From Candidatus Woesebacteria bacterium (GTDB lineage: Bacteria; Patescibacteriota; Microgenomatia; UBA8517): DNA of 64,000 nucleotides. Below, piece after piece: positions 4,798-60,833 of the stretch; the stretch's first letter is position 1; each line of letters starts with the position of its first letter. The stretch is taken from contig CP065002.1 in the NCBI GenBank assembly GCA_016700095.1, positions 932,145-996,144 on the forward strand, given 5' to 3'. The notes under the pieces were generated by a model. It was not told the DNA's origin, ran no database searches, and was given only the letters and a program-made list of their open reading frames with translations. The position numbers were made by a program, and so were the translations under genes.

Positions 4798-4835
4798 TCA
4801 ATTTGATTTCGATAAATAGCCGTAGACATCAAGTG

Positions 4836-9473: not shown

Positions 9474-9479
9474 CTAATT

Positions 9480-10136
9480 TTATACTTTTCTAACTTTTAC
9501 AGCGTGCAGCATACCCAATATGAATTTTTTATTACATATAACCTTAAACCCATTTTTGACGCACAGCTCATCAAGGTATTCGTTCCTATATGCATGCAGG
9601 TGGGTATGATTCCATATTTTTCCCCGACCTTTACACCAAAACGGCCACAGTAACCGAAAAAGAAAATTCTCGGAAGGTACTAGAAATACCGCGTAACCAT
9701 TTTTTTTCAACACTCTTTTAACTTCCTTAAGAACCTTCATCGGCTCAAATACATGTTCGAGCATTTCCATCGCAAATACAGCATCAAAAGTACCCGACTT
9801 AAACTTAAGTTTATGGGCATCTCCTACCTCAAATTTCATCTTTTTGTTTTTCTTCCAATGATTTTTTGCCCATGTTATACTGCTCTCCAAAACATCAATC
9901 CCGATTATTTCTTTAGCTTTAGTTGAATCTAATATTACTTTCGTAAAAACTCCATCCGCACATCCGATGTCCAACACTTTCCCCTTGACCGGTTCTGCCA
10001 ATCTGGTTACCTCCTGAAATCTCCTGGTGTGCCAATACCTCTGCATCTTGTTAATTTGAATTGAAGTGTAATACCAGTCGGGTGGTACATTTTCGTGTAA
10101 TTTAGCTGCCATTGATTCCGACTGTTTCATAATCAT
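9480..10136 (-). CDS. Class I SAM-dependent methyltransferase.
   Basis: 218 aa. Motif I VLDIGCADGVF and FDAVFAMEMLEHV, typical of the Methyltransf_11/12 fold. Confidence 0.8.
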   Translation of the reverse strand: MIMKQSESMAAKLHENVPPDWYYTSIQINKMQRYWHTRRFQEVTRLAEPVKGKVLDIGCADGVFTKVILDSTKAKEIIGIDVLESSITWAKNHWKKNKKMKFEVGDAHKLKFKSGTFDAVFAMEMLEHVFEPMKVLKEVKRVLKKNGYAVFLVPSENFLFRLLWPFWCKGRGKIWNHTHLHAYRNEYLDELCVKNGFKVICNKKFILGMLHAVKVRKV

Positions 10137-10260
10137 ATTATAGCAAGGAAAAATGTTTACGTCTGTATATATTCCGTAACATTTTACTCTGCCTGTTCTA
10201 ATATATATTTTTCATCCTTTTATGACACAAAAGGTTTACTGTCAAGACAAAAAATACAAT

Positions 10261-11802: not shown

Positions 11803-11931
11803 ATTCGTCTAATTATAAATCATTTAACATTAAATATTATATAGTCGTGTCTAGTTTATTTAAGTAAACTAAAATAATTACATGTGTTTAATTGAGGATG
11901 GGCAACGCTTTGATAGAAATTATAAATACCA

Positions 11932-13515
11932 TTAGTTGGCTTTCTCTACGTTCCATTCCTGGATAATAAAACCATCTATCGCGACTTCGTTTATTAATTG
12001 CCCTCTCTCACTAGCCCACATAACGATTTCTTTTTTGTACTTTTCAGGAATTCTATATGTAGTATCAATGACTACAAACATCAATTCTTCGTTGGCACTA
12101 CGAGGTAATTTATAGTAGGGATCCATCAAATCTCCACCCAACCATCCCGGCAAATAGCCATATTTTCTTAAGCCATACCAATTATAGTGATAAGACCATG
12201 TCGCGTTGTAATAAAGAGGATACGAAACGGTATTTAAAGAGAAGGGTTTCCCGTTTGCTTTTTGATAGGTAAAATCCACAACGGCAAGTTGCGAAGTTAA
12301 TACTGCGGATAAACACGGTTTAAGTAGAAAATCTTTATTACTTTTATACGCTCTAACGGTAGTGACGTTGCTTAATACTATCAAGGTAAGCAAAATCAAT
12401 GGTGTTATTCCGGGAACTCTAGATAAAACATATCCTGCAGATAGTGCTATCGCGGATAATATCCCTATTAAAAACCAAGGTTGAGTGTGATATCCGAAAA
12501 TTATCATTAAAGAAGGAGACAATAAAAATAGAAGCACAAAAACTGCTGATTGTTTAAGGTTCTTGTCTTTTGCTTTTCGAGAAACATATATTAAATAAGT
12601 AATTGTAATGAGGGCTACAAGTGTTCCAAACTTGTGAAATCCTGGTGACAGACTATTTGTAAAGATATCGAAAAAATCATTTAAAAAATAAAGTGCCCGG
12701 TTTTGAAGTGTAATGTCAGCATCGTTAAAAAACTCTGAAAAATGTGTTAGCGTGTATATCCCGGCGTATTTTAATTTTATCTCATTAACTATCATTGTCG
12801 ATGTAGCTAGAAAAAATAAAAGACATGATATTGCGACAGTTCTCAAGGTCGGAAGCCTTGGTCTAAATATCACAAGAGCAATTAACGTCGCCGGAATCAG
12901 GTACAACATAAATAGTTGCGATTGCAGGGCTAGCCCTAAAAATAATGCCGACAACTGAACACCATATTTTTTTCCTTGGATAAATCGCCAAAGAAAATAA
13001 TAGTACAAAGGAACCGTAACCAAAGTTAATGTCGTATTTGATATCCAGCCGGTGAATTGAATAGTCACAAAAGAAACTGCGAAAAGAAGTGATGATATGT
13101 ATGCCGCTTTGTTATCTTTAAACAACGCCTTTGAAAAGATAAATATTACGACAACCATTAGTGAATTTATTAGCGAATTCCACGCAGCTATATAAACGGG
13201 GTGTGCATTAAACAAGGTATATGGTAGCAAATTATAATAGAAATAAAGTACACCATGTCTTAAGTTATATAACCCATAAATCTTTCTTCCCATGACAGGT
13301 AAATCATGATATTCAACAATTTTGCGGGTATGCATCAAATCTTCGATTTGATCATAGTCAAATACTAATACATCCGGATAAAAACTATAGATTCTAATAA
13401 TGAAGGCAAATGCAAATATAAAAAATAAGGGCAACGCAAACGCCCGAAGATTGGCGTTATAGTATTTCTTTGATGTGTTTACAAAATTCTTCATATGAAT
13501 ACATGATAGCGTCAT
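11932..13515 (-). CDS. GT-C-like membrane glycosyltransferase, a divergent member of the DQxRD subfamily.
   Basis: 527 aa. Motifs VFDYDQIEDLMHT and FTGWISNTT. C-terminal SYPLYYNATWSYHYNWYGLRKYGYLP. The true start may be the internal Met at about 13494. Confidence 0.6.
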   Translation of the reverse strand: MTLSCIHMKNFVNTSKKYYNANLRAFALPLFFIFAFAFIIRIYSFYPDVLVFDYDQIEDLMHTRKIVEYHDLPVMGRKIYGLYNLRHGVLYFYYNLLPYTLFNAHPVYIAAWNSLINSLMVVVIFIFSKALFKDNKAAYISSLLFAVSFVTIQFTGWISNTTLTLVTVPLYYYFLWRFIQGKKYGVQLSALFLGLALQSQLFMLYLIPATLIALVIFRPRLPTLRTVAISCLLFFLATSTMIVNEIKLKYAGIYTLTHFSEFFNDADITLQNRALYFLNDFFDIFTNSLSPGFHKFGTLVALITITYLIYVSRKAKDKNLKQSAVFVLLFLLSPSLMIIFGYHTQPWFLIGILSAIALSAGYVLSRVPGITPLILLTLIVLSNVTTVRAYKSNKDFLLKPCLSAVLTSQLAVVDFTYQKANGKPFSLNTVSYPLYYNATWSYHYNWYGLRKYGYLPGWLGGDLMDPYYKLPRSANEELMFVVIDTTYRIPEKYKKEIVMWASERGQLINEVAIDGFIIQEWNVEKAN

Positions 13516-14494
13516 TGACAGCCTTCTTTTTCAAGGCATTTAACTGTCTTGGGTTGTCAATAATTTCTTGCGTTTGTTTCTTTAAGCCATCCTTAGTTGA
13601 CCACAATATTCCATTACTATCATTAAGTATTTCTCTGTGACCACCAGCATCCAATGCCATCGGAACACACCCTGCCGCCATTGCTTCTACAACCGTAATT
13701 CCAAAATGTTCTACTTTTTCAGGTTTAGTATTTTCATCAACATCGTATCCGGCTGCAGTCCAATATATTTTCGCTTGAGAAAACAAACTTTGTATTTTAA
13801 CAAAAGGTGGATTTTCCAAAATAGTAATCGGATAGTGTTTGGATTTCTGAATAAGATCGTCAACATAGTGAGTTCTCCCAACATCGCTTCCACCCGCAAC
13901 GATTAACTGCCATTTCTCTTTTCGCAAAACACTGTTTCTTTCATCGAACAGCGTTTTAAATACATCAATCAAAACGTCTTGTCTTTTTGATTGCTCAAGC
14001 AGCGAAAATCTACCTACCGATAAAATTGTATTAACCTTTTTTCCGGATTTGAAACTACGAACATCTACGGGAGGATAAAGTACAAATGATTTCTGAGGAT
14101 ACTCATTATCGATCCACTTTTTGGTAAAATTGGAATTTACCAACACTTTATTAATCCTAAAAAACTTCATCCTGTTTATCAATGATTTACCATCTGTTCC
14201 ATAAAAAGGACGTTGAAAATGAAGTATGTTTTTTCTTGCATAAAGTGTGGGAATACTTCCGTCCGATAACCAAAAACACAAATCATATCCATTGCCACGA
14301 TTAATAGAAGGGACTACTTTTAATTTGGTAGTATTAATACCAAGACGCTTTTGAATCTTAGTTAGTATCAGTTTGTCGCTTGACTCTATATATACATCCC
14401 ACCCCATCTCTTGCAAACATTTTGCAAAACTAATGGTATATCTTTCCCCACCACCCAAGGTGTCAAGATAAGGGCTAAATATTGCTGCTTTCAT
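13457..14494 (-). CDS. GT4-family (GT-B fold) glycosyltransferase.
   Basis: 345 aa. The C-terminal E-x7-E region EHFGITVVEAMAAGCVPMALDAGGHREIL is typical of GT4/GT1 retaining transferases. The N-terminus is FSPYLDTLGGGERY. Confidence 0.8.
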   Translation of the reverse strand: MKAAIFSPYLDTLGGGERYTISFAKCLQEMGWDVYIESSDKLILTKIQKRLGINTTKLKVVPSINRGNGYDLCFWLSDGSIPTLYARKNILHFQRPFYGTDGKSLINRMKFFRINKVLVNSNFTKKWIDNEYPQKSFVLYPPVDVRSFKSGKKVNTILSVGRFSLLEQSKRQDVLIDVFKTLFDERNSVLRKEKWQLIVAGGSDVGRTHYVDDLIQKSKHYPITILENPPFVKIQSLFSQAKIYWTAAGYDVDENTKPEKVEHFGITVVEAMAAGCVPMALDAGGHREILNDSNGILWSTKDGLKKQTQEIIDNPRQLNALKKKAVNDAIMYSYEEFCKHIKEIL

Positions 14495-14562
14495 AGAATA
14501 TGTACTTCGTAAAGAGATGCGTATTAATCGCTATTTAAGAAATTTTTTAAGTTAACATCACA

Positions 14563-15354
14563 TTAATCCGATTTTTTTTCAACTTTGTTTAGTTTCCTCT
14601 CCTGCATTTCCCATAGTTTCGCATAACTTGTAAACCTACTGTAAATCTGAAAAAGTGAATATATCACTCCTTCAGTTTTGTCTCTGAATCCTTGCTTAAG
14701 AATAAAAACGGACCAGGCTTCTCTCATTGTGGCGGTAAAAAACCTGACAATATTCATTGGTGGGTGATGGGCATCAAACATTAGTTTGGCCTCGATTTCC
14801 GACCATTTGTTAGTTTTCGCCATCATATCCGACAGGTTATCGTGTTTAAGGTGGATTAGATGATTAGATAGATAAGAAAGCTCACCGTCAAAAACAGGAC
14901 GTTCATGAACATTGCCAACCCATTTTTTCAAAGCAGATTTTCTAAACAAACGATGTTGGTAATCCGGCCATTGTCCACCGAATCGAAATTCTTTTCCAAA
15001 TATTATGTTTTTTCTTGGTACTGCATAGGCAGTAAAGCGAAGCTGGGTATCAGTGACAATAGAAAGCATTTCCTTCTTTAGGTCATCCGTAATTCTTTCG
15101 TCGCAATCCAAATAAAACAACCATTCTCCTTTAGCTTTTTTCTTTCCCTCATCCCGTAAGCGATTGAAATCTCCTTTTGCTTTTTCGTATACTTTTGCAC
15201 CCGCTCGGCGTGATACTTCTGACGTCAAATCACTTGAGTAATTATCAATTACTATTACTTCGTCCGCAAAACCAGCCGATTCAATAGCATCGACGATTTT
15301 ACTCTGCTCATTTTTTGCAATTATTACAACCGAAAGCTTTGTTTTATTTGTCAT
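14563..15354 (-). CDS. Family 2 glycosyltransferase (LPS-core/WaaE-like type).
   Basis: 263 aa. Motifs LSVVIIAKNEQSKI, VIVIDNYSSD and YLDCDER. It is paralogous to 16293..17192. Confidence 0.8.
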   Translation of the reverse strand: MTNKTKLSVVIIAKNEQSKIVDAIESAGFADEVIVIDNYSSDLTSEVSRRAGAKVYEKAKGDFNRLRDEGKKKAKGEWLFYLDCDERITDDLKKEMLSIVTDTQLRFTAYAVPRKNIIFGKEFRFGGQWPDYQHRLFRKSALKKWVGNVHERPVFDGELSYLSNHLIHLKHDNLSDMMAKTNKWSEIEAKLMFDAHHPPMNIVRFFTATMREAWSVFILKQGFRDKTEGVIYSLFQIYSRFTSYAKLWEMQERKLNKVEKKSD

Positions 15355-15355
15355 G

Positions 15356-16285
15356 TTAATTCCAACTTCCCTTCTCTAAATTTCCCAACACATAATCTTT
15401 TATTCCTATTTTTTGCCATTTTCTTCCGTGTACTAATAAACGGACAGCTTCACGCATTATAGCAAATTTTGTCCGACTACTTGCATATTTCATCGCGAAA
15501 AGTAAACGATTTCTTGAAATGAAGTAATCGTTTAAATAACCGCCTATTTGAGAACTTTGCGATACTTTGTGCCATACTACCGCTTTCGGAACAAAACATA
15601 TTTGGAATCCGGCTTTTCTCACTCTCTCTGAAAAATCCATGTCCTCCAAATACATATAGTATTTTTCATCAAACATGCCAACTTTTTTTATTACCTCTGC
15701 CTTAACAAACAAACAAGCACCGCTTGCAAAGTCCACTTCATCAACTTCATCAAACTGTCCGGTATCTACCTCATCAACACCTCTATTGGTACCGTAAATA
15801 TTATTCCAATCAACATTTCCCCCAACTGCCCAAATAACTTTTCCTAAGTTGTGTTTTTTATACCTTTCTTTATGGAATTCGTAACCTTTGGCAAAATATA
15901 TTTTAGGCGATAAAATACCCGCTGAAGGATTTGAATAAATCTCCCTAAGTAGTTCGACAATTAACTTACTATCGGCTTTAGTGTCGTTATTTAATAACAC
16001 TAAATAATCAGCTCCCTGCTTTATTGCATACTTGATTCCGATATTATTTCCCTTGGCAAAACCATAATTTTCCTTATTAACTAACAATTTATATGCAGCT
16101 TTCTGGAGTTTGATATTTGAAAGTTTGTCTTTACTGTCATCACTTGATGCGTTATCAACAACAATCACCTGTAATTTATAATTATCAACTTGGAGTTGAT
16201 CTAGCGATTCTAAACACTCCAGAGTAAGTCCCGGTTTATTCCAATTTAATATTATTATTGCAACTTTAGGAATCTTATTTTTCAT
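15356..16285 (-). CDS. Family 2 glycosyltransferase.
   Basis: 309 aa. Motifs VAIIILNWNKPGLT, VVDNASSDDS, LLNNDT and YLEDMDF. Confidence 0.85.
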   Translation of the reverse strand: MKNKIPKVAIIILNWNKPGLTLECLESLDQLQVDNYKLQVIVVDNASSDDSKDKLSNIKLQKAAYKLLVNKENYGFAKGNNIGIKYAIKQGADYLVLLNNDTKADSKLIVELLREIYSNPSAGILSPKIYFAKGYEFHKERYKKHNLGKVIWAVGGNVDWNNIYGTNRGVDEVDTGQFDEVDEVDFASGACLFVKAEVIKKVGMFDEKYYMYLEDMDFSERVRKAGFQICFVPKAVVWHKVSQSSQIGGYLNDYFISRNRLLFAMKYASSRTKFAIMREAVRLLVHGRKWQKIGIKDYVLGNLEKGSWN

Positions 16286-16292
16286 TGACTGT

Positions 16293-17192
16293 TCAGGGTA
16301 ACTTGAATTTTCGTTTTACTTGATTAACGATTCCCCCGTGTTTAATGCATAAAACATTGGCATTCCAATAATTTAATTCTTTTTGAGATGTTTTTAATTC
16401 TTTTATAATCTCCTCGGTGTCGATAATCTGACTTTTGAACTTAGATAGTTCCCATAATTTAAGGTACAAAACCAACTCGGAAAAAGCCTGAAGTAGCGAT
16501 AAACCCAAACCGTGGATTCCGTCTTTATACCCTTCACCTTGAAAGTATCTGCTTAAAAACTCACTCATCGGTTTTCGGATTAAATCGCGCCACTTAAAGT
16601 AATATTTGTTTTTTCTCATCTCTTTGGCTTGCATCGTAGTATACCGATTCATCCGTGCTACGTACTGATCAATAGTATCGTAGTGGTGATGAACAATCGC
16701 ATTTTCTTCATTCCCCTCAAGGTCTATGCCCTTACCTTTCGTAGTTGGAACCGAGTGAATAAGTTCACTCCACTCTACGAATCCTTTTTTAAAAAAACGT
16801 ATATTATAGTCAGGCCACCACCGGGAATGTTTTATCCACTTACCAAAAACAATATTTTTCCTGGGCAAACGATAGTAATCAGCCGTTGGAGTTTCCCGAA
16901 GTTTCTTTAACGTGTGAACCAATTGGGCGGTTAATTCTTCGTCAGCGTCAAGTACCAGCACCCAATCGCCGGTTGTCTTACTTATAGCAAAATTGCGCGC
17001 CGGTTCGACGTAACCCATACGAGCATGTTCGTATACACTTGCACCAGCACGCCGCGCAAGTGTGCGTGTTGCATCGGTTGACTTCATGTCAACAACAATC
17101 ACTTCATCTGCTAAATCACCCAACGACGACAAACACCTCGGAAGATTTTTTTCCTCATTGAGTGTGTTTATGACAACCGATATTTTTGCCAT
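16293..17192 (-). CDS. Family 2 glycosyltransferase, paralogue of 14563..15354.
   Basis: 299 aa. Motifs ISVVINTLNEEKNL, VIVVDMKSTD and VLDADEE. Confidence 0.8.
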   Translation of the reverse strand: MAKISVVINTLNEEKNLPRCLSSLGDLADEVIVVDMKSTDATRTLARRAGASVYEHARMGYVEPARNFAISKTTGDWVLVLDADEELTAQLVHTLKKLRETPTADYYRLPRKNIVFGKWIKHSRWWPDYNIRFFKKGFVEWSELIHSVPTTKGKGIDLEGNEENAIVHHHYDTIDQYVARMNRYTTMQAKEMRKNKYYFKWRDLIRKPMSEFLSRYFQGEGYKDGIHGLGLSLLQAFSELVLYLKLWELSKFKSQIIDTEEIIKELKTSQKELNYWNANVLCIKHGGIVNQVKRKFKLP

Positions 17193-17246
17193 ACCTTATA
17201 TTATCACGGCTATGAAATAAGCCCAACCTGGTATATTCTAGTAGAC

Positions 17247-19571
17247 ATGATAATGACGGTTGCAACACTTTTTCTAGGCTCCTCACTGGGGACGATTCTT
17301 GCGAGATTGTTAGTCAAGGCAACAAACCTACAACTAATTAATCCAACCATACCGGGAGTATCAAGTAATCTGGTAATATACAAAACCTTTGACTTTGTCG
17401 AATTCATTTTTGCCATCATCGCAACGCTTGGACTATTTTTCGTTAATTACGTGATTGAGAGAAGATATTTAAAGAACGCCAAAGATAATAATATCACCAA
17501 AACACCTAAAATATTTTTCTTAATTCTTTCGAGTGTTATCTTTGTTCAGACACATTTTGTAACTTCATCCGGGAAAATTGTTTTAGTACTTATTGGTGTT
17601 ATCGAATTACAATACCTTTTATTGAACAAATATCCTTTTAGGAAATTTCCCAAAAATGATATTATCTTATTAATTACTAACGGTGCTTTGACGGGATACT
17701 GGGGATTATTGATTGCAAATACATTTACGACAAGTATTGCTATTCCGGTTTCAATTTTCTTGTTTTGTGTCTTTTGGTATGTATTACTCGGCCAAAGATA
17801 CAAAAATATATTACTTAGTCCCTTCCACTTAGTGCTTCCACTTGGATTATTTTTTCCGACAAACACGGGTTTCTTGTTTATTCTTGGGGGAGTTAGTGTG
17901 TTTTTAATTTTACTTTTTAAAGACAAATTTTCAAAGTTATCGCACACTCGGCAAAAAAGGACGGACAACATTTTGTCGTTTCTTCAATATGTTGGATATG
18001 GAAAAATAAACTTCAATTTCGTTTACTCCTTTTTATATCCTGTGTTAATTATCGTGGTTATATATTACAACCCGCTTTATTATGCAGGTAATCTAGATAG
18101 TGTAGAAGAAGGTTTTTGGTTAGCTTGGCTAGAGAGAATGAAAAATGGTCAGCATATATATAGAGATTTTGCCGCATACCATCCTCCGTTTCTTGCGTGG
18201 GGTATGTATGCGTTTGTTACTATAACCGATTTTACAATCAAAAACGTCCGGTTATTCTTACATATCTGCCAAATAATATCCGCAATTATTTTCTACTTTT
18301 TTACTAAAAACTTAGTATCCAAAAAAGTAAGTATACTTGCTACATTTCTTATTTTCCTATCAGCAACATATACCCCGGTCAGAAATAATGTTGAAATACG
18401 AACAACGATCGGATTGTTGGCAATTCTATTTTGGTTTTATTATTTACAATATAAACATACCGGATTGTTGATATTTTCTGGCTTGATTTCTTCGATATCA
18501 TTATTTACAAGCACGGAAGTCGGAATATCCGTAACTCTCGCCATTGCACTATCAATACTAATTACCGGCAGTAATAAACCCAAAAGTATTGTCATATATT
18601 TGTTTGGGTTATTTCTCGGGGTAACGCCTGTTGTTATATATCTGGCAATAAACAGTTCTTTAACACAATATATTTCTTACATCTTTTTCTACTCTTCAAC
18701 CCTTGCACAGGGATATTTTAATACAGCGGTTGAAAGGGCAATTAGTACAGCCTTTTTACGTTGGCATTTGGTGTGGCAATATTTTAGTTCGACGGCATGG
18801 CTTACCGAATTCACACGTATGGTTTTTCTCACTACTTTTATTGTTGTTGCAAAAAAAGTGTTCGACAAATCAAAAAGTAGGAGAAATATTATTTTAACAA
18901 CCTTAACTAATAAAGAAGTTCTTGCGTTTACCGTCGCGGTGTTTGGAATTATATTATTTAGATCGGTATTGGGAAGATCCGATTACTATCATGTTTTATT
19001 TGTCCTGATACCTGCATTACCACTATGTTATTTTCTATTGGAGAAATATGACAACAAGGCTGTATTCTCGACCGTTACGGCATTTTTACTATTTGTTGTC
19101 TTTGCGAAACCCGTCAACGAAACTTACCTGTCACATGTGCTTTTTAAATTCACTACTTATGCAACTATTGTGGATGAATACAAAAGTTATGACATACCAA
19201 ATAGCCAAATTCTAGTAGGCACTGAAGTTGATGTTGATAAAATCAAAGAAGTTGTCGATTACATCAATGAAAACACACACTCTCGTGATACAATTTTTGT
19301 CTTTCCTTGGAATCCCGAATTGTATTTTTTGTCCGACATCAAAAACGCCACATCGTTTGATACACCGCATGCTTTCTGGTCTGATCATTTTCAAAATATC
19401 ATGGTTTCAGAACTACAACAAAATACACCAAAGTTAATAATTCTAAATAAAACTTCTATATTTGGAAACCTTGGACCAAATAGCTTGCCACTAGTAAATG
19501 GATTTATAAACGATAATTATAAGGTTTCGAAAACATTCTACCCGTACGATATCTTGATTCCTGTGAATTAA
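17247..19571 (+). CDS. Large polytopic membrane protein of unknown function; possibly a GT-C-like transferase or polymerase.
   Basis: 774 aa. About 18 predicted hydrophobic helices. It has a loop LAWLERMKNGQHIYRDFAAYHPPF and a C-terminal soluble domain of about 150 aa. It is the only plus-strand gene in a long minus-strand glycosylation run. Confidence 0.5.
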   Translation: MIMTVATLFLGSSLGTILARLLVKATNLQLINPTIPGVSSNLVIYKTFDFVEFIFAIIATLGLFFVNYVIERRYLKNAKDNNITKTPKIFFLILSSVIFVQTHFVTSSGKIVLVLIGVIELQYLLLNKYPFRKFPKNDIILLITNGALTGYWGLLIANTFTTSIAIPVSIFLFCVFWYVLLGQRYKNILLSPFHLVLPLGLFFPTNTGFLFILGGVSVFLILLFKDKFSKLSHTRQKRTDNILSFLQYVGYGKINFNFVYSFLYPVLIIVVIYYNPLYYAGNLDSVEEGFWLAWLERMKNGQHIYRDFAAYHPPFLAWGMYAFVTITDFTIKNVRLFLHICQIISAIIFYFFTKNLVSKKVSILATFLIFLSATYTPVRNNVEIRTTIGLLAILFWFYYLQYKHTGLLIFSGLISSISLFTSTEVGISVTLAIALSILITGSNKPKSIVIYLFGLFLGVTPVVIYLAINSSLTQYISYIFFYSSTLAQGYFNTAVERAISTAFLRWHLVWQYFSSTAWLTEFTRMVFLTTFIVVAKKVFDKSKSRRNIILTTLTNKEVLAFTVAVFGIILFRSVLGRSDYYHVLFVLIPALPLCYFLLEKYDNKAVFSTVTAFLLFVVFAKPVNETYLSHVLFKFTTYATIVDEYKSYDIPNSQILVGTEVDVDKIKEVVDYINENTHSRDTIFVFPWNPELYFLSDIKNATSFDTPHAFWSDHFQNIMVSELQQNTPKLIILNKTSIFGNLGPNSLPLVNGFINDNYKVSKTFYPYDILIPVN

Positions 19572-44809: not shown

Positions 44810-45391
44810 TTACCGGTTTTTATAAAGACGATCAGTTTCTATAATTTTTTCGAGAGCCTTACGAATTACTTCAGATCTATTTGTCCCATCGTGTACCTTT
44901 ACATACCAGTTTAAATAACTGATATGTTTGTTGTGAAGAAACACGTTAATCCTTTTGTTGAGATGATTACTCCTCACAGTAGCAAGAAATTCTTTTACTA
45001 TTTTATCAATTTCCGAAACAGATGAGTATATCTTAGAATAAAAAAGAGGATCTTGAACTTTAGCTGAGTAATCTCTTTCGTCCGATAAGCACAATACGGG
45101 TATTTTCTTATCCAAAGACATTTGGGCTTCCTGTCCCAACTTAAATGAATATTTACTTGCTTCAAAAATTGCCGCATCAGACATTTCGATAGCCTTTCTT
45201 ATAAACTGATTATGTATTGATATCTTAGAAATTTTTTTATTTGCTTTTTCGAGATCAAGCAGATCTGAATATTTATGTGTTTCCGGGCTAATTACTTTAT
45301 GTCCATGTGAACGAATAGAACGAATAATTTCGTCAAATATTTCCTGTTTCTGATCCTTGGTACTTACTGAATTTGTATAGAATATAATCAT
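44810..45391 (-). CDS. Hypothetical protein with a C-terminal ribbon-helix-helix (CopG/Arc-like) domain.
   Basis: 193 aa. The C-terminus INVFLHNKHISYLNWYVKVHDGTNRSEVIRKALEKII matches the RHH pattern. The N-terminal about 140 aa form a Rossmann-like alpha/beta domain of unknown function. Confidence 0.4.
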   Translation of the reverse strand: MIIFYTNSVSTKDQKQEIFDEIIRSIRSHGHKVISPETHKYSDLLDLEKANKKISKISIHNQFIRKAIEMSDAAIFEASKYSFKLGQEAQMSLDKKIPVLCLSDERDYSAKVQDPLFYSKIYSSVSEIDKIVKEFLATVRSNHLNKRINVFLHNKHISYLNWYVKVHDGTNRSEVIRKALEKIIETDRLYKNR

Positions 45392-45548: not shown

Positions 45549-46454
45549 TTAGTTTTCACCTAATCCTTGAAGAATCATGTCCTCTACAATCTGTTTCCAT
45601 GTTCTAAATTTCATCCCCAGCGCTTTTTGTGTTTCTTCCACCTTTAAACCACCATATTTGGGATATCGTACCGGACTGTCGGTTTTTAACAAAAATTCAT
45701 CAATCGAGGTTGTACTAAGGTTTACATCCTTGTTTCGCGTTTTTTTAAGTACATAAGTATACAATTCGTGCGGTGTGGTGCGATCAACAGAACATGCATG
45801 ATAAATTCCTTTGACAGACGCATCAATGAGGGCTGATATCACTTGACATGCCTCATCTATGTAAGTAATTGACACTATTTGATCGGTAAAAAGCGGATAA
45901 AGTTTTTTTTCGTCATAAAGCTGAATTGGTTTGCGAATGTAGTCAAGCTTACTTGCAAATTTTGCTCTAACCGGATAAGTTAATCTTAATATTGCCGAAC
46001 TAGCCGTGTATTCATTAACCACTTTTTCCGCCTCTAGTTTCGTATAACCATACCATGTAAGGTTTTTGGAAACTTCGTGTCTTGTGTCTTTTTCACCATA
46101 CGGACCCGGGGTCAAACTAGATCCCGGAAATATCATATCTGTCGAGATGTGAACGAAATGTCTTTTTTCTTTACCTGCCCAAACACTCAGAGTCTTGGTT
46201 GCGTCTACGTTTATTTTCCAACATAATCCTTGTCTATTGTCTCGTTGCAACTCGGCTTCACCTACATTTGTATAAGCAGCAAAATGGACAATCGCGTCTG
46301 GTTTGTTTGAATTTAAGTAATTTACAACCTCTTTACTTTTTGTCAGGTCGAGAGTGTCAATTTCGGGAGTTAACATTTGGTAATCATCTTTTTTTAACTC
46401 CACAAACCTCGAACCAATTAAGCCATGTGAACCGGTAACAAAAATTTTCTTCAT
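45549..46454 (-). CDS. rmlD: dTDP-4-dehydrorhamnose reductase (RmlD-like NAD(P)-dependent reductase).
   Basis: 301 aa. Motifs IFVTGSHGLIGSRF, AIVHFAAYTNVGEAE, HISTDMIF and PYGE. It overlaps rmlC by 4 nt (ATGA). Confidence 0.75.
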   Translation of the reverse strand: MKKIFVTGSHGLIGSRFVELKKDDYQMLTPEIDTLDLTKSKEVVNYLNSNKPDAIVHFAAYTNVGEAELQRDNRQGLCWKINVDATKTLSVWAGKEKRHFVHISTDMIFPGSSLTPGPYGEKDTRHEVSKNLTWYGYTKLEAEKVVNEYTASSAILRLTYPVRAKFASKLDYIRKPIQLYDEKKLYPLFTDQIVSITYIDEACQVISALIDASVKGIYHACSVDRTTPHELYTYVLKKTRNKDVNLSTTSIDEFLLKTDSPVRYPKYGGLKVEETQKALGMKFRTWKQIVEDMILQGLGEN

Positions 46455-47013
46455 GTGAATTTATTGGGAAATTGTTCACGCAATGTCGGATTGGCTCGGT
46501 CACGGTCGGATATAATGGGATTTTTGACAGGCCACGAAATATTAAGATCCGGATCATTCCACGCTATTCCACTCGCTTTACTGTTGTCCCAATACTCTTC
46601 GACCAGATACATATAATTTACCTCTTTGCTTCCAAGTGCACATATTGAATTTCCTATTCCGGGAGGCAATAACAAAGCCGACCGTACAGGGTTTTCTTTC
46701 GTGCAATCAAAAATAAAAGTTTCTACTTTCCCAAAATCCGGCGAGTCTTCCCGAACATCAGCAATCGCAACAAATGTTTTTCCCGTAAGGGGATAAACAA
46801 TTTTTTTCCAGTTTTCTGTATGAATCGCTCTGATAACCCGCGGTTTAGATACCGAGTGATTCCATTGAACCGCTTTGAATTTTACACCCATTTCTTCCAA
46901 CTCGCTTACTCTAAATACTTCATGAAAAAACCTCGTTCATCGTAATAAACAGGTTTCTCGATAATGAAAACTCCTTCAATACTCGTTTTTTTCACAGTGA
47001 TTGTGTTTTCCAT
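46451..47013 (-). CDS. rmlC: dTDP-4-dehydrorhamnose 3,5-epimerase (RmlC), interrupted by a 1-nt indel in a homopolymer.
   Basis: The first 35 codons (MENTITVKKTSIEGVFIIEKPVYYDERGFF...) start at 47013 and hit a stop after MKYLE. The remaining 149 aa (46451..46900) are in another frame. One extra T in the coding-strand T6 run (forward A6 at 46925..46930) restores DERGFFHEVFRVSELEEMGVKF..., a typical cupin-fold RmlC. Confidence 0.7.
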
Positions 47014-47016
47014 ATT

Positions 47017-48021
47017 TTACTTCTGTTTAGTTTTAGAATACATTTTTTCCGATTTCAGTTTAAGCGGTCGCCACCACCATTCATTATCTTTGTACCACTT
47101 AATCGTTTCTATTAGCCATTTTTCAAAATCATGTTGAGGCCTCCAACCGAGATTTTTAATTTTTGTCCAATTAACCGCGTATCTTCTATCATGTCCACTT
47201 CTATCAGCAACAAATCTAATTTTTGAGTGATCGAAACCAAATGCCTCCAACAATAGATTGGTAACCTTAAGGTTATTTATATCATGTGTTAAACCACCAA
47301 CTAAATAAGTTTCCCCCACTTTTCCCTTATTAATAACCAGGTCAATCGCACTACAATGATCTTCGACATACAACCAATCTCTTACATTCTTTCCGTCCCC
47401 ATAAATCGGTACATCTTTCGAATCAATTAGATTTGTGATAAATCTGGGAAGCAACTTCTCGGGATCTTGAAAAGGACCGTAATTATTGGAAGTATTAGTG
47501 ATAGTTATATTCAAACCATACGTAGTGTGATATGCCCGAACAAGATGGTCGGATGCTGCTTTACTCGCCGAATATGGACTGTTTGGCTTGTAACATGATT
47601 TCTCACTAAATTTTTCTACACCACTTAACGGTAGAGCACCATACACTTCATCTGTAGACACATGGTGAAATCGTTTAACGCCGCGTTTTACCGCTTCATC
47701 CAATAAAACTTGAGTACCTATGACATTTGTTTTTATAAACACTTTTGGTCCAATTATCGAACGGTCGACGTGACTTTCTGCAGCAAAATGAACTACGACA
47801 TCGACATCCTTCATTGCATGAGACACTGTCGTAGGCGAGCAGATATCGCCCTTAATAAAAGTATAGTTAGAATTACCCCCAAAATCTTTCGTCGATGTCA
47901 AATGACCGGCATATGTTAATTTGTCTAAATTTACTATTTGATCCTTTGGATATTTTTTTAGCCAGTAACGGATAAAGTTACTGCCGATAAATCCCGCTCC
48001 TCCTGTTACAAGCAATCTCAT
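47017..48021 (-). CDS. rmlB: dTDP-glucose 4,6-dehydratase (RmlB).
   Basis: 334 aa. Motifs MRLLVTGGAGFIGSNF, YxxxK (YSASKAASD), HFAAESHVDRS and VSTDEVYG. Confidence 0.9.
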   Translation of the reverse strand: MRLLVTGGAGFIGSNFIRYWLKKYPKDQIVNLDKLTYAGHLTSTKDFGGNSNYTFIKGDICSPTTVSHAMKDVDVVVHFAAESHVDRSIIGPKVFIKTNVIGTQVLLDEAVKRGVKRFHHVSTDEVYGALPLSGVEKFSEKSCYKPNSPYSASKAASDHLVRAYHTTYGLNITITNTSNNYGPFQDPEKLLPRFITNLIDSKDVPIYGDGKNVRDWLYVEDHCSAIDLVINKGKVGETYLVGGLTHDINNLKVTNLLLEAFGFDHSKIRFVADRSGHDRRYAVNWTKIKNLGWRPQHDFEKWLIETIKWYKDNEWWWRPLKLKSEKMYSKTKQK

Positions 48022-48267
48022 AGGTTGTTCATAAAATGATAATTAATTAATAGTGCTTTACTTTGAAAGCAAGCTTTTAAATCCCGCTCCTGACGTTACA
48101 AGCAATTTCATAGGTTGTTCATAAAATGATAATTAATTAATAGTGCTTTACTTTGAAAGCAAGCTTATAAATCCCGCCCCTGACGTTACAAGCAATCTCA
48201 TAGGTTGTTCATAAAATGATAATTAATTAATAGTGCTTTACTTTGAAAGCAAGCTTATAAATCCCGC
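47989..48267. repeat. Tandem direct repeat, 3.1 copies of a 90 bp unit spanning the rmlB start codon and its 5' region.
   Basis: The unit aaatcccgc(t/c)cc(tcc/tga)(t/c)gttacaagcaat(c/t)tcataggttgttcataaaatgataattaattaatagtgctttactttgaaagcaagctt(t/a)ta occurs at 47989-48078, 48079-48168 and 48169-48258, with a partial copy at 48259-48267. Copy 1 carries the real rmlB ATG (48021..48019). Copies 2 and 3 carry decoy ATGs encoding MKLLVTSGAGFKSLLSK-like 17-aa peptides. Confidence 0.9.
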
Positions 48268-48302
48268 ACTTTTAATTATAATTAAGTTTTATTGCCGAAA
48301 TA

Positions 48303-49382
48303 TTAAACTCTTACTTTGGATTTTTCTCCAATGAACAATTTTATCCAATGAGTGGGATCTTCCAAATCATAAACTTCGGCTTCGTTGCCAATCATACTTT
48401 CGTTAATTGGTTGTTTGACGTTTATTATTCTTACATTTTCCATCAATACACTATCTTCTAAATGACTTTTTTCAATTACACATCCACTGCTAATAGATGA
48501 ATATGGACCAATATACGAATCACTTATTTCAACATTGTCGCTTATTGACACAGGGCCTTTTATTTCTGAATTTCTAATTTTACAGTTTTTTCCCACACTC
48601 ACTCTACCGATTATTTTCGTACTCCTGTCGATTTTTGACCCCATATCATCTACCAGGTATTCATCTAACAAATATCTATTGGATTCTATCCAGTCATTAA
48701 ATTTACCAGGGTCTAACCACTTTCCTTTATACTCAATTACATCGACCCGATATTTATTGTCAATTAACCATTGGAAAACTGATGGTATTTCATATTCTCC
48801 ACGCGCTGATGGTACTATCTTGTTTTTTCCCGTGAAGCATTTGAAAACATTATGGTCACCAAAATATAATCCGGGGACAGCAAAGTCGTGTGGGGAATTC
48901 TTTGGTTTTTCCACATATTTTATAAGTCTGTTTGTTTTCGAGAAATAAGGGACACCAAGACGGGAGTTTTCAGGATGATGTACCATAGTCACCATGCCAT
49001 TTGGCTTGTTTTTCCGAAAGTAGTCAGTAACTTCTTTAATACCTTTTGTAAAAATATTATCGCCTAAATGGTATACGAAACTATCACCATTCAATTTCTC
49101 TTCACATACTTGGACAACGTTTGCCAGTCCAATTGGTTTTTCTTGTAATACGTAGGTAAATTTCGCTCCCCACTTACTTCCATCACCTAAATACGACTTC
49201 ACCACATCTAGCCAACCGGGGTTATAGGTAATTAATATATCTTTTATGTCTGCTTCGACAACAGATTCAATTGGATAGAAAATCAATGGTTTATTGGCTA
49301 CTGGAATAAAATGTTTATTGGTAGAAAAAGTCAGAGGTTGCATTCGCGTTCCTCGTCCTCCTGTAGGTATTATTGCTTTCAT
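48303..49382 (-). CDS. rmlA: Sugar-1-phosphate nucleotidyltransferase, long form with a C-terminal left-handed beta-helix (glucose-1-phosphate thymidylyltransferase-like).
   Basis: 359 aa. The N-terminus KAIIPTGGRGTRMQPLTFSTNKHFIPVANKPLIFY matches the GxGxR nucleotidyltransferase signature. The C-terminal hexapeptide-repeat region is (VSIGKNCKIRNSEIKGPVSISDNVEI). It heads the rml gene run. Sugar and nucleotide specificity is not provable from sequence. Confidence 0.75.
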   Translation of the reverse strand: MKAIIPTGGRGTRMQPLTFSTNKHFIPVANKPLIFYPIESVVEADIKDILITYNPGWLDVVKSYLGDGSKWGAKFTYVLQEKPIGLANVVQVCEEKLNGDSFVYHLGDNIFTKGIKEVTDYFRKNKPNGMVTMVHHPENSRLGVPYFSKTNRLIKYVEKPKNSPHDFAVPGLYFGDHNVFKCFTGKNKIVPSARGEYEIPSVFQWLIDNKYRVDVIEYKGKWLDPGKFNDWIESNRYLLDEYLVDDMGSKIDRSTKIIGRVSVGKNCKIRNSEIKGPVSISDNVEISDSYIGPYSSISSGCVIEKSHLEDSVLMENVRIINVKQPINESMIGNEAEVYDLEDPTHWIKLFIGEKSKVRV

Positions 49383-57460: not shown

Positions 57461-58582
57461 TTAGCGATATTTGTATTTTTTATTAACAGAGCTACCGACA
57501 GTTTTTAATCCAAGTCCGACAAAGATAACTCCCATCCAATAGATATATGGATTAACTAAATTACTTGATGTATCGGAAAGCCCTAAGATTTCAATAGCAT
57601 CAATAGCTACAGAATAAACTGCCGCCTGAACTGCATGGGTATTATTCGTACTGCCACCAATAGGATCTCCGGGGTCAACGGGGTCGCTAAAATCATCCGG
57701 ATCGTCCGGGTCTTCCGGATCGTCGATGATACAACAATCATCAATAGTAATCGAGCCAAAATTAATAGGACCGTTATCAATATAGAAATTAAAGTCAATA
57801 TCCCCGGTTAGAATACTCACGTCTCCACTGTTACCATTCGCGTGATTGTTACCGGTATTGAGATCCCATAAAACATTATTTAATATATTTGCAGTGTTAA
57901 ATATATAAGTTGTATCGTTTGCGGTATTGGTGTAATTTAACGAATTGAATGAGTTTACTCCATTCTCGTTAATTACCATGTTAGTACTTGTACTTTTATC
58001 TGAATTAACTTTGACATCGTGAATATTTATTGGGCCATTATTAATACCGCCCGCTACAGTTATACTACCGGTGGAAATATTTACATTGCCGTTATTTTGA
58101 TTTGCTACATTGTTACCCGTATTTACATTTCCATATATAGTATTTTTAATAGTCGTATTTTGATTTACCACTACCTGTGTATTTAGTTCTTGGAAAACCG
58201 AAGTAGTATTAGTAGAACCATTTCCGTTGCCCACTATGGTAATTTCTGTTTCGTTTTGACAGCAATCACCGGTATCCACAAGAGAAGTGTTTGTATTGTT
58301 TTCGACTACGACAGTTTGCGAAGTATCCCCGGTGACAATTTCAACTTCTCCACCATTTTCACTAGCGGTATTTCCGCCCGTGTTTGAATCTATGTGAATA
58401 TTATTATCGATATTTGCAGTGTTTGTTTGAACAACATTCTGATTATTTTCAACTTGAATATTTACTTCATTGTTAGTATCCGAACCATTGCCGGTAATGG
58501 TGATATCAAGAGCCGTAACCAGGCGAACCGGATACGATATCAATATCAACATGGCGAGAATTAATGTAATAATGTTTTTCAT
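57461..58582 (-). CDS. Secreted Asn/Thr/Gly-rich tandem-repeat protein (paralogue C) with a hydrophobic C-terminal tail.
   Basis: 373 aa. A signal peptide, then repeated units (TGNGSDTNNEVNIQVENNQNVVQTNTANIDNNIHIDSNTGGNTASENGGEVEIVTGD; NTGNNVANQNNGNVNISTGSI; NTGNNHANGNSGDVSILTGDI). Cys pairs DCC and DDCC, an acidic DPEDPDDPDDFSDPVDPGDP stretch, and a C-terminal helix YIYWMGVIFVGLGL followed by KKYKYR. Confidence 0.6.
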   Translation of the reverse strand: MKNIITLILAMLILISYPVRLVTALDITITGNGSDTNNEVNIQVENNQNVVQTNTANIDNNIHIDSNTGGNTASENGGEVEIVTGDTSQTVVVENNTNTSLVDTGDCCQNETEITIVGNGNGSTNTTSVFQELNTQVVVNQNTTIKNTIYGNVNTGNNVANQNNGNVNISTGSITVAGGINNGPINIHDVKVNSDKSTSTNMVINENGVNSFNSLNYTNTANDTTYIFNTANILNNVLWDLNTGNNHANGNSGDVSILTGDIDFNFYIDNGPINFGSITIDDCCIIDDPEDPDDPDDFSDPVDPGDPIGGSTNNTHAVQAAVYSVAIDAIEILGLSDTSSNLVNPYIYWMGVIFVGLGLKTVGSSVNKKYKYR

Positions 58583-58619
58583 TAACCGTTTGGCAGAAGA
58601 AATTTTTGGCAGAAGAAAT

Positions 58620-60833
58620 TTATCTAGTCTTTACGACAATTAGTTTGCTTTTTTTAACAAATGCGATTATGGCAAGTGCGGGCAAAGTAAAGATTAACCA
58701 AGCAAGATTAATATTGTAAATACCTTCCGCCGTTTCAGCTTGCCCGCTTGTTATCGATTCGCTTCCTACCATTGCAATACTTTCATTGTCTGGAGTAGAC
58801 GTTATTGCCACTCCGGCAACTTGTTTGTTAAGTTTTTCGGATTTACCGGTAGTTTTATAGACTAAAGAAGCTACTGCTACACTGCCGCCTCCCTGGTCAT
58901 TTTGACTACTAACCTCATCGGTAATATCGTCATTGTCGGAAGTATTAAACCCGGTGTCAACATTTGCTCCACCAATTGCAGTATTTTGATTATATATTTC
59001 AGCCGTAGACTCTGTTTTAGAATTACCGGGAGTTACAAAATCCCCAAGCCAACTTCCAAAGACATTTACAACCGTGACAACCAATTTACCTTCGCCGACA
59101 ATATTATTGTTTACAAAATTTACAATATTGGCAATTATATTTGCATCACCCGTTAATATTCCACTAGTTCCTCCTGTGTTGGCATTAGCCGTATTTCCAC
59201 CCGTATTGGCAGTTAAATTAACGTTATTTACAATCTTGGCATCATTATCTTGAACGGTCGTACTATTGGAAGATTGATTTACATTTGCTGTGTTTGTCGA
59301 ACCACTACCGTTATCTGCGTTACTTACATTGACTTCACCGTTTTCACCAATCTGAAATTCGAATCCATCAGACCCTGCAAGGTTAGATCCATCCGGTGCT
59401 CCCATAATCTTGCCGATCCAATTTCCCGCCTCATTAATAATTACCAACCACCAATTTCCACTATCAATATTGGTATTTGCTACATTGAGAACCTGAGCAT
59501 CCACATTTGAATTACCTGTTGATAAATAATTATCACCATTTGTGTTTTGCGCTAAACTATTATCACCTGTTTGGGCATCGAAGATTAGATTGTTCTCGAT
59601 GTCTGCATTATTAAACTGGTAGGTACTATCGGTTGTCGCAGTTGTTGCATTAGCGAGATTGGTACTACCCGTACCATTTTCACTATTGGCCACACTCGTA
59701 CCCAAACCACAACAATCCAGTGAAAAACCATCCGGCATAATAATATCTCCAATCAAATTACCGAATATATTTACTACACCATAAATTATATCTCCCGCAA
59801 TATTGTTATTAGCGAAAGTCAATACGTTGGCAGCTACATTTGCATCACCCGTATCAATTAAATTATCCCCGCCGGTGTTGTACGATGTGCTGTTATTACC
59901 CGAATCAGCAAGAAGAGTTAGACTATTTTCAACCGTTGCGTCATTATTTTGAAATGTTATATCGTTGTCAAGATCAGTAAGATTGGCTTCGTTAGTTGAG
60001 TTGGCACCATTTGCTGTATTTGTCACACTAGATTGACCGTCACATCCTTGTATACAATTACTTCCAAAATCTAAAATAATGTCACCTACGTGATCATCGG
60101 CGATGTTGAATTCCGAAACAGCTACGCCATCAACATTGGTATTAACCGAGGTTATAATTGTACCAGTCGTATTTGCATTACCTGTTTGAATAAATGAATT
60201 ATCTCCTGTATTGAAACTTGACGAATTCTGCCCGGTGATCGTTTCCTGATCCACGTTGTTTGCCACAGCGGCAGAATTATTTTGATTGGTCACATTATCA
60301 TTTGCTATCGTTGCCGATCCGTTGTTGGTAGAACCACTTCCGTTGCCTGTATTTGCAACATATGCACCACCCGCAGAACCGCCACCTAACGTAGCTATGT
60401 TATTATTTCCTGTTGTGATGACTGTCGTATCATTTGTTGCATCGCCTGTCTGGATATTACTTTCACCCTCACTTTGATTCTGTGTGTTCGTTGGTGTTGG
60501 TGTAGGTGAGACGTAACTTTCGGAATTATTTGTTCCACCATTCGTTTCCTCCTGTTGATTTTGAGTATTATCATTATTCGTATCATGACCATGCGACGCT
60601 GGAGAACCCGTGGGCGACGGAGTAATACTTACCTGTGCCGGACTCGGATTACTCGGTGGCGTTGGAACCAAAGGAGAAGCGGGCGGTGTTGGTGCCGTCG
60701 GTGTACCAGGTGCTGCCGGTGCGGTTGGCGGTGTTGGTGCCTCCAAAGCATAGACACTCGCGGTATTTGTTAGTAAAAATACCGCTGTAAATAGCGTAAT
60801 TATTATTTGTCTAATCCTATATTTTGTTTTCAT
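58620..60833 (-). CDS. Secreted Asn/Thr/Gly-rich repeat protein (paralogue B) with a Pro/Thr-rich N-terminal linker and a C-terminal TM plus basic tail.
   Basis: 737 aa. A signal peptide followed by EAPTPPTAPAAPGTPTAPTPPASPLVPTPPSNPSP. Repeated modules of the form NTGGDNLIDTGDANVAANVLTFANNNIAGDIIYGVVNIFGNLIGDIIMP occur four times. Motifs DCC and CIQGCDG. C-terminus IYNINLAWLIFTLPALAIIAFVKKSKLIVVKTR. Confidence 0.6.
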   Translation of the reverse strand: MKTKYRIRQIIITLFTAVFLLTNTASVYALEAPTPPTAPAAPGTPTAPTPPASPLVPTPPSNPSPAQVSITPSPTGSPASHGHDTNNDNTQNQQEETNGGTNNSESYVSPTPTPTNTQNQSEGESNIQTGDATNDTTVITTGNNNIATLGGGSAGGAYVANTGNGSGSTNNGSATIANDNVTNQNNSAAVANNVDQETITGQNSSSFNTGDNSFIQTGNANTTGTIITSVNTNVDGVAVSEFNIADDHVGDIILDFGSNCIQGCDGQSSVTNTANGANSTNEANLTDLDNDITFQNNDATVENSLTLLADSGNNSTSYNTGGDNLIDTGDANVAANVLTFANNNIAGDIIYGVVNIFGNLIGDIIMPDGFSLDCCGLGTSVANSENGTGSTNLANATTATTDSTYQFNNADIENNLIFDAQTGDNSLAQNTNGDNYLSTGNSNVDAQVLNVANTNIDSGNWWLVIINEAGNWIGKIMGAPDGSNLAGSDGFEFQIGENGEVNVSNADNGSGSTNTANVNQSSNSTTVQDNDAKIVNNVNLTANTGGNTANANTGGTSGILTGDANIIANIVNFVNNNIVGEGKLVVTVVNVFGSWLGDFVTPGNSKTESTAEIYNQNTAIGGANVDTGFNTSDNDDITDEVSSQNDQGGGSVAVASLVYKTTGKSEKLNKQVAGVAITSTPDNESIAMVGSESITSGQAETAEGIYNINLAWLIFTLPALAIIAFVKKSKLIVVKTR

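Follow-up and report, generated by a model that had tools for sequence, protein, structure and literature searches.

Tandem copies of the rmlB start between rmlA and rmlB in a Candidatus Woesebacteria genome, and their counterparts in related Microgenomates

The rmlA-rmlB junction

The stretch of DNA considered here, called the window, is 64,000 nucleotides (64 kb) of contig CP065002.1 from a Candidatus Woesebacteria bacterium. It contains an rmlABCD gene set for dTDP-rhamnose synthesis, and the 281-nucleotide (nt) spacer between rmlA and rmlB (48302..48022) is occupied mostly by a tandem array whose unit includes the start of rmlB itself. Tandem duplications as such are well known, and the array is one of them. 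Its content, the gene's own start, is unusual, and the recurrence of such start copies in related lineages is unexpected. All coordinates are positions within the window, and the array and the rml genes lie on the minus strand. The features of the junction are as follows.

48303..49382, minus strand: rmlA, long-form glucose-1-phosphate thymidylyltransferase (TIGR01208, 332 bits against a cut-off of 320)
48257..48267, minus strand: the '0.1' copy, an 11-nt direct repeat, GCGGGATTTAT, lying 5' of the array (no other part of the pre-array sequence matches the unit significantly)
48167..48256, minus strand: copy C (distal), 55-nt leader plus a 35-nt copy of the rmlB 5' end (copy alignment)
48077..48166, minus strand: copy B (middle) (copy alignment)
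47987..48076, minus strand: copy A (proximal), the leader in actual use plus the real rmlB ATG (48021) and first 35 nt (copy alignment)
47987..48267, minus strand: the whole tandem array, 3.1 copies of a 90-nt unit (Tandem Repeats Finder and a second repeat search)
47017..48021, minus strand: rmlB, dTDP-glucose 4,6-dehydratase (TIGR01181, 453 bits, E 4.9e-136)

In the Tandem Repeats Finder output the array (47987-48267) is by far the strongest repeat of the window, with a period of 90, 95% matches, no indels and a score of 520. An independent repeat search recovers the same register, with spacings of 90 and 90 (family D1). Both programs thus agree with the original prediction of 3.1 head-to-tail copies, about 95% identical. 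Read 5' to 3' on the coding strand, the unit consists of a 55-nt non-coding leader, AAGCTTGCTTTCAAAGTAAAGCACTATTAATTAATTATCATTTTATGAACAACCT, followed by nucleotides 1-35 of rmlB. Copy A holds the genuine rmlB start, as had also been claimed; its coding part amounts to 11 codons plus 2 nt, and the frame runs on into the 334-residue protein.

RmlB of the window is 100% identical to QQS38686.1 (Candidatus Woesebacteria bacterium; 1,274,238-bp contig). Among 8000 scored homologues the next best is 73-75% identical, and the best match in the genome collection is 71% identical. Exact-protein look-ups with the RmlB and RmlA of the window returned no other contig.

Differences among the copies

Copies A, B and C are 94-98% identical in pairwise comparison. 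Columns 1-59 of the unit are the same in all three, so that the distal copies match the real start from -55 to +4, in keeping with the prediction that they retain an in-frame ATG in its original context. The six variable columns (60, 73-75, 79 and 90) all fall in the rmlB-derived part. Copies B and C share a change of AGG to GTC in columns 73-75, which turns Gly7 of the GxxGxxG motif into Ser. Private changes are found in copy C (column 79, A to G) and in copy B (column 60, G to A, Arg to Lys; column 90, T to A). The shared change, together with the private ones, implies a duplication, then mutation, then a second duplication. If change were uniform along the unit, all four events (six columns) would fall in columns 60-90 with a probability of about 0.014, that is (31/90)^4. 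The leader may be constrained in every copy, to go by this distribution.

An assembly artefact had been raised as an alternative. A single copy would then have been multiplied by the assembler or through mixing of strains, which is very improbable. The genome is a metagenome-assembled single contig, and rmlC, 1 kb away from the array, has a frameshift in a homopolymer, possibly a sequencing error. Artefactual expansion would, however, yield identical copies, and these differ at six positions in a nested pattern. Moreover, the array is just 281 nt long, and diverged analogues of it occur in four independent and unrelated assemblies from other projects (see below). The frameshift near the array is nevertheless a reason to inspect the reads of the region.

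Short open reading frames of the spacer

Analysis of open reading frames (ORFs) gives two upstream ORFs (uORFs) and a smaller ORF at the rmlB start.

48148..48201, minus strand: uORF of copy C, 17 codons plus TAA, peptide MRLLVTSGAGFISLLSK
48058..48111, minus strand: uORF of copy B, 17 codons plus TAA, peptide MKLLVTSGAGFKSLLSK
48018..48032, minus strand: 4-codon mini-ORF ATGAACAACCTATGA (MNNL*), whose TGA overlaps the rmlB ATG (ATGA)

The ATGs of copies C (48201) and B (48111) are in frame with rmlB, and both 17-codon uORFs end before the real start, as predicted. The first begins 101 nt after the rmlA stop codon. Each stops 36 nt before the next ATG, and neither overlaps a neighbouring start or stop. 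Mini-ORFs identical to that at the rmlB start are found at 48108-48122 and 48198-48212, such that each of the three ATGs is overlapped by ATGA. The peptides of the extra copies code for nothing useful, the replacement of Gly7 by Ser destroying GxxGxxG.

The distal starts had been viewed as decoys. The idea of a decoy that represses is borrowed from scanning ribosomes and is not supported here. In bacteria, initiation at a uORF does not block initiation downstream, and terminating ribosomes can re-initiate nearby. Bacterial upstream ORFs more often deliver ribosomes than withhold them.

Origin of the array

The 11-mer GCGGGATTTAT, which encodes the Gly-Ala-Gly-Phe-Ile part of the NAD-binding motif of RmlB, is present at all four unit boundaries. 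It is found at 48267-48257, 48177-48167 and 47997-47987, and in a form with one mismatch, GCGGGATTTAA, at the end of copy B (48087-48077). A direct repeat at every unit boundary points to slippage or to unequal crossover as the origin of the array. The proposal of replication slippage is therefore upheld, with crossover fitting as well. In general, short repeats mediate tandem duplication and amplification by slipped-strand mispairing or unequal crossover; bacterial minisatellites and variable-number tandem repeats (VNTRs) belong here, polymorphism being what defines a VNTR.

The upstream 11-mer is preceded by 25 nt (48268..48292, minus strand; ATAAAACTTAATTATAATTAAAAGT) that show 13 of 24 matches, with one gap, to nucleotides 1-24 of rmlB when anchored to the 11-mer. 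This score is reached by 93 of 5000 shuffles and by 343 of 18280 25-mers of the window, about 2% in either case. Counted by eye, transitions such as G to A make up about half of the mismatches, consistent with decay in a genome rich in A+T. These 25 nt, together with the 11-mer that seeded the array, are probably what is left of an older, now decayed copy of the rmlB start.

The junction in related bacteria

For comparison, rmlB loci were pooled from 78 species-representative genomes, 80 metagenome contigs and 14 contigs reached through close protein homologues. The comparison covered 141 distinct rmlB loci (designated here by an L and a number), and the junction was tallied at 93 loci with rmlA directly upstream on the same strand. 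A 4-5-nt overlap (ATGA) is seen in 45 of these 93 junctions and a spacer of at most 9 nt in 59. The other spacers measure 37-105 nt (16 junctions), 17 nt (one), 176 nt (one) and at least 473 nt (16), the last group mostly having room for another gene. As judged from sequence comparison, the tight coupling of rmlA to rmlB by a 4-nt ATGA overlap is the ancestral state. Such an overlap implies translational coupling, and against an ancestral state of this kind the 281-nt spacer of the window is unusual. Another way of opening the junction is seen in L163 (1012-1500; Logan SRR22387868_2870269), a locus outside the tally of 93. There a gap of 489 nt separates long-form rmlA from rmlB; it has no called gene and no repeat, and holds short ORFs such as MNKKNKPKFQET….

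The comparison with orthologous spacers that had been suggested finds the triplication missing in relatives, and no tandem repeat with a period of at least 20 spans the rmlB start at any of 75 genome loci. Judged by RmlB, L121 is the closest relative (76% identity). Its spacer, 42 nt long and single-copy, was found again in two other samples (L169 and L170). It starts with AAGCTTGC and ends with TTTTGTAAACTACCTATT before ATGAGA, and so matches both ends of the window leader, AAGCTTGC at the start and TTTTxTxAACxACCTAT before the ATG. The MNNL mini-ORF is not conserved in L121. Since the two leader ends are shared, the leader was inherited, and the triplication is specific to the lineage of the window.

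Upstream copies of rmlB codons 1-12 occur at five of the 141 distinct loci, namely the window, L162, L086, L165 and L016 (Microgenomates). Among loci whose RmlB is at least 68% identical to that of the window, 4 of 39 are carriers. The copied coding segment ends at codon 11-12 in every carrier, breaking off after …GGN TTY A. The sequence alignments thus indicate that, in Woesebacteria and other Microgenomates, duplication of the start recurs at the rmlA-rmlB junction. On a neighbour-joining tree of RmlB, carriers are interspersed with loci that have no copy. When 519 ORFs of the same loci were scanned, the roughly 440 genes besides rmlB contributed no more than a single borderline case, L024.

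The four other carriers differ in form. L016 (2888-3033) has one 49-nt copy, 88% identical and 97 nt upstream, that opens a 17-codon ORF. L086 (406-468) has a single copy, whose alignment score is reached by 0 of 500 shuffles. It forms a 20-codon ORF, MRLLITGRAGFLSKVLKTYL, with its ATG overlapping the rmlA stop and its TGA overlapping the rmlB ATG. In L162 (1336-1501; Logan SRR30010519_830242) the space between rmlA and rmlB holds two diverged copies. The order there is rmlA, ATGA, a 33-codon ORF, ATGA, a 21-codon ORF (MRLLITGGAGFISRACKAATF), TAA, one nucleotide and the rmlB ATG (TAAtATG). L165 (825-930; Logan SRR31239916_40191) carries an in-frame duplication of 51 nt. Its first copy overlaps the rmlA stop by ATGA and reads in frame into rmlB, and the called protein, P0054, begins MKLLVTGGAGFTAKTKG-RKLLVTGGAGFIGS.

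Some details of these loci may be recorded. No rmlA lies upstream in L016, where rmlB closely follows a cluster of ribosomal protein genes and an ORF for a small membrane protein. The second copy of L162 is preceded by a Shine-Dalgarno-like motif, GAGGTG, and a 21-nt tandem repeat. The protein start in L165 reads MKLLVTGGAGFTAKTKGRKLLVTGGAGFIGS, and the second copy has CGC at the position of the ATG. Coding sequence further downstream in rmlB was tried as a source of the inter-copy spacer of L016 and is not its source. L024 does not stand as a start duplication; what is repeated there is a palindromic motif (TTAGGCCTAA) rather than a copy of coding sequence. The palindrome, ATTAGGCCTAAAAT with core TTAGGCCTAA, occurs about four times in 150 nt between rmlB and the next gene (4022-4171) and looks like a set of operator sites.

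Beyond the copies themselves, L162 and L121 are clearly homologous in the sequence that follows the break (score reached by 0 of 2000 shuffles), whereas homology to the window and L086 is no more than suggestive there. No shared spacer sequence is found between the window and L016 or L086, the scores being reached by 325 and 356 of 500 shuffles, respectively.

The arrangements in L086, L162 and L165 invite a different account of the short ORFs. They would carry ribosomes from rmlA to rmlB by termination-reinitiation, so recouple genes that have been separated, and be retained for that reason, the window array being a multi-step relay. The unbroken chains of ORFs in L086 and L162 and the ATGA overlap at the rmlA stop in L165 are what such a relay would look like. 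ATGA coupling is, in addition, the ancestral arrangement, and in the window a 4-codon ORF overlaps every ATG in the same way. Short ORFs that deliver ribosomes, and mycobacterial interspersed repetitive units (MIRUs) coupled at -4, are described in a review (PMC12548453). In the window, however, the chain is broken, first by the 101 nt after the rmlA stop and then by the 36 nt that follow each 17-codon ORF before another ATG is reached. The copy in L016 is uncoupled as well, and the MNNL mini-ORF is missing from the nearest relative. It must also be noted that a period of 2 modulo 3, combined with a pre-existing ATGA, yields a coupled chain automatically, and coupled chains in two loci are for this reason weak evidence of selection. 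The relay is attractive for L086 and L162 and does not fit the window; as an explanation of the array we regard it as unlikely.

A more far-reaching proposal sees the junction as an 'accordion'. The conserved RmlA tail G-I-Y-W (GGG ATT TAT TGG; GGGATTTATTGG) and the RmlB motif G-F-I-G (GGA TTT ATT GG; GGATTTATTGG) can share up to 11 nt. In L096, GGATTTAT occurs both at -22 and at +28, and TATTGG(G) is shared in several further loci. A nucleotide coincidence between RmlA tail and RmlB motif is a possible cause of the recurrence, on the strength of these matches. Such identity may seed copies of rmlB codons 1-12, which would be kept as relay ORFs or start modules that sustain rmlB translation without Shine-Dalgarno sites, and the window array would then be a functional form, tunable in copy number. 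We put this forward as a speculation, somewhat more doubtful than the relay. An 8-mer common to the long rmlA tail and the unit, CAAAGTAA, was compared by eye and is compatible with chance.

Start-site signals

Among the 48 ORFs of at least 100 residues in the window, Shine-Dalgarno-like motifs are nearly absent from the 5-15 nt before the start. Hexamers resembling a -10 element are clustered instead. They end 6-10 nt before the ATG at 11 sites, against 25 sites over the 44 positions from 11 to 54, and the clustered ones often have TG just upstream. This suggests that many mRNAs of this Woesebacteria genome may be leaderless or nearly so. The original prediction held that any promoter or ribosome-binding elements of the unit would be triplicated. 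What is triplicated is the start context as such; neither a Shine-Dalgarno sequence nor a promoter consensus can be recognised in it. A promoter inside the unit is possible, the best candidate being the hexamer TATCAT (5/6), which ends 14 nt before the rmlB ATG.

Copy-number variation had been suggested to make the array a regulator. The array would expand and contract in the population, and the number of units would set expression of dTDP-rhamnose synthesis through promoter dosage or uORF load. The 90-nt repeats in perfect register are substrates for slippage and the locus has evidently been duplicated more than once; furthermore, relatives have 0, 1 or 2 extra copies and the leader is invariant among the copies. 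Rapid turnover is, however, argued against by the private substitutions in each copy, and no promoter can be demonstrated in the unit by consensus scan. The variation observed is, besides, between species that are 25-40% apart in RmlB and not between strains. We think it improbable that the array acts in this manner.

Proposed mechanism

On balance we consider it somewhat probable that the array is a real, lineage-specific and recent re-amplification of the rmlB start module at a junction that had already been duplicated, with an effect that is neutral to mildly positive. The ancestral ATGA overlap of rmlA and rmlB would have been opened, and copies of rmlB codons 1-12 inserted, in several lineages. 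In the lineage of the window, slippage or unequal crossover between the GCGGGATTTAT direct repeats would have generated the array, the seed being the upstream 11-mer left over from an earlier duplicate of the rmlB start. The two full extra copies would represent a recent re-expansion. Because their start sites are the same as the real one, they should be recognised by whatever recognises the rmlB start, be it RNA polymerase, if the leader contains a promoter, or ribosomes. Each copy would then provide an extra entry point for RNA polymerase and/or ribosomes 5' of rmlB in a genome that appears to be without Shine-Dalgarno sites. Expression of rmlBCD would as a result be unaffected or mildly raised, and not repressed.

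Several observations weigh against this account. The identical leaders may reflect recent duplication or gene conversion rather than selection. The uORFs of the window are linked neither to rmlA nor to the next start, given the distances noted above. A consensus scan of the minus strand of the repeats found no sigma-70-type promoter, TATCAT is the best -10-like hexamer that the unit offers, and its position falls outside the 6-10-nt zone seen for other genes of the window. For the window leader, homology is no more than suggestive with L162 (p 0.07) and with L086 (p 0.36). As to the seeding of copies from the RmlA tail, a match of at least 6 nt between the rmlA tail and rmlB +22..+45 is found in 27% of loci and in 17.5% of shuffles, a weak excess. 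Finally, the scattered distribution of the carriers may stem from one old duplication followed by losses or from several independent events.

Relation to known systems

The array resembles a minisatellite or VNTR in that its units are head-to-tail in exact register, with 11-nt repeats at the boundaries, an intergenic position and signs of stepwise expansion. Unlike these, it has a unit that spans a start codon and the first 11 codons of the gene, each copy being a pseudo-start, and the repeat that seeded it seems itself to be the relic of an earlier duplicate. Tandem duplications of a promoter that raise expression are exemplified by TR34 and TR46 in the cyp51A promoter of Aspergillus fumigatus. 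As in that case, the region immediately 5' of a gene is copied in tandem and a dosage effect is plausible. The differences are that the duplication of the window reaches into the coding sequence, that its promoter is putative only and that the host is a bacterium.

Short ORFs that serve solely to deliver ribosomes to the next gene are covered by the review already mentioned (PMC12548453), and two further papers deal with termination-reinitiation from short upstream ORFs to a downstream gene (PMC5574718, PMC8092293). Like ribosome-delivering uORFs, those of the window encode short, apparently non-functional peptides directly upstream of a gene, in a genome that seems to have no Shine-Dalgarno sites, a lack that would make coupling important. 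They differ in being derived from the N-terminus of RmlB itself, in being arranged in tandem and in ending 36 nt before the next start.

MIRU elements, also treated in PMC12548453, are tandem units of 40-100 nt within one operon whose short ORFs overlap the neighbouring start or stop at -4. A similar -4 architecture is seen here in L086, L162 and L165 and in the 4-codon mini-ORF of the window. One might accordingly regard the array as a mobile intergenic repeat of the MIRU type, or as a structured cis-regulatory RNA or terminator, that came to lie at the rmlB start by chance. The 90-nt size, the position within an operon and the small ORFs are reminiscent of MIRUs, and each unit starts with a 6-bp hairpin (TGCTTT/AAAGCA). 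MIRUs differ, however, in being spread over many loci and in having no relation to the coding sequence beside them. The unit described here occurs at one locus of the 64 kb, with no match besides the array in the window by blastn-short and 0 exact matches of its 33-nt core in JGI metagenome contigs. Over a third of it (35 of 90 nt) is copied from rmlB's own codons, and the 17-codon ORFs overlap no neighbour. Regarding RNA structure, Rfam gives no match for the whole window at the gathering threshold, nor for the region at E up to 1. On either strand, the predicted folds of the spacer and of single units are no more stable than those of shuffled sequences (z 0.34, 0.40 and -0.06), and a consensus scan of the rmlA-rmlB spacer found no terminator-like site. 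An origin of this sort we judge to be extremely improbable.

Taken alone, the array is a small structural mutation of an uncultured bacterium, and it gains some interest from similar copies in four other divergent lineages. At one extreme is an in-frame N-terminal duplication (L165), and at the other are mini-ORFs with overlapping stops and starts in unbroken chains (L086 and L162). These forms provide a natural series for the study of how tightly coupled gene pairs separate and re-link, and of start-site choice in Candidate Phyla Radiation bacteria, which seemingly do without Shine-Dalgarno sequences and have promoters of the leaderless type. For annotation, the series is a reminder that gene callers can choose the wrong start or fuse a duplicate to the gene, as happened for P0054.

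Neighbouring genes and another repeat

Within the rmlABCD set, rmlA and rmlB score above their NCBIfam cut-offs, rmlD scores below its own and rmlC is split.

46451..47013, minus strand: rmlC, split by a frameshift of 1 nt within a T6 run at 46925-46930 (NCBIfam and sequence)
45549..46454, minus strand: rmlD-like gene, overlapping rmlC by 4 nt (TIGR01214, E 1e-40, 139.6 bits, below the curated cut-off of 224)

Addition of one T to the T6 run restores an RmlC of 187 residues that aligns end to end with the orthologue from L005. The frameshift may have arisen as a sequencing error in the homopolymer or as a genuine inactivating mutation, or it may mark a slippery site for -1 frameshifting. The run can also be read as a slippery heptamer, U UUU UUC. 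Downstream of rmlD, an ORF of 193 residues (44810-45391, minus strand) has a weak C-terminal match to the aCcr1 ribbon-helix-helix family (27.8 bits against a cut-off of 60).

Elsewhere in the window (3058-19571), at least five paralogous large membrane proteins have PMT_2 domains, similar to dolichyl-phosphate-mannose-protein mannosyltransferase. They form a large glycosylation-related gene cluster, in which other ORFs are interleaved.

3058-4797: PMT_2 protein
4836-6308: PMT_2 protein
6292-7785: PMT_2 protein
11932-13515: PMT_2 protein
17247-19571: PMT_2 protein

A perfect 16-nt tandem repeat, TTTGGCAGAAGAAATT, is present in 2.1 copies at 58589-58621. It sits in a 37-nt gap directly 5' of a minus-strand gene (57461..58582).

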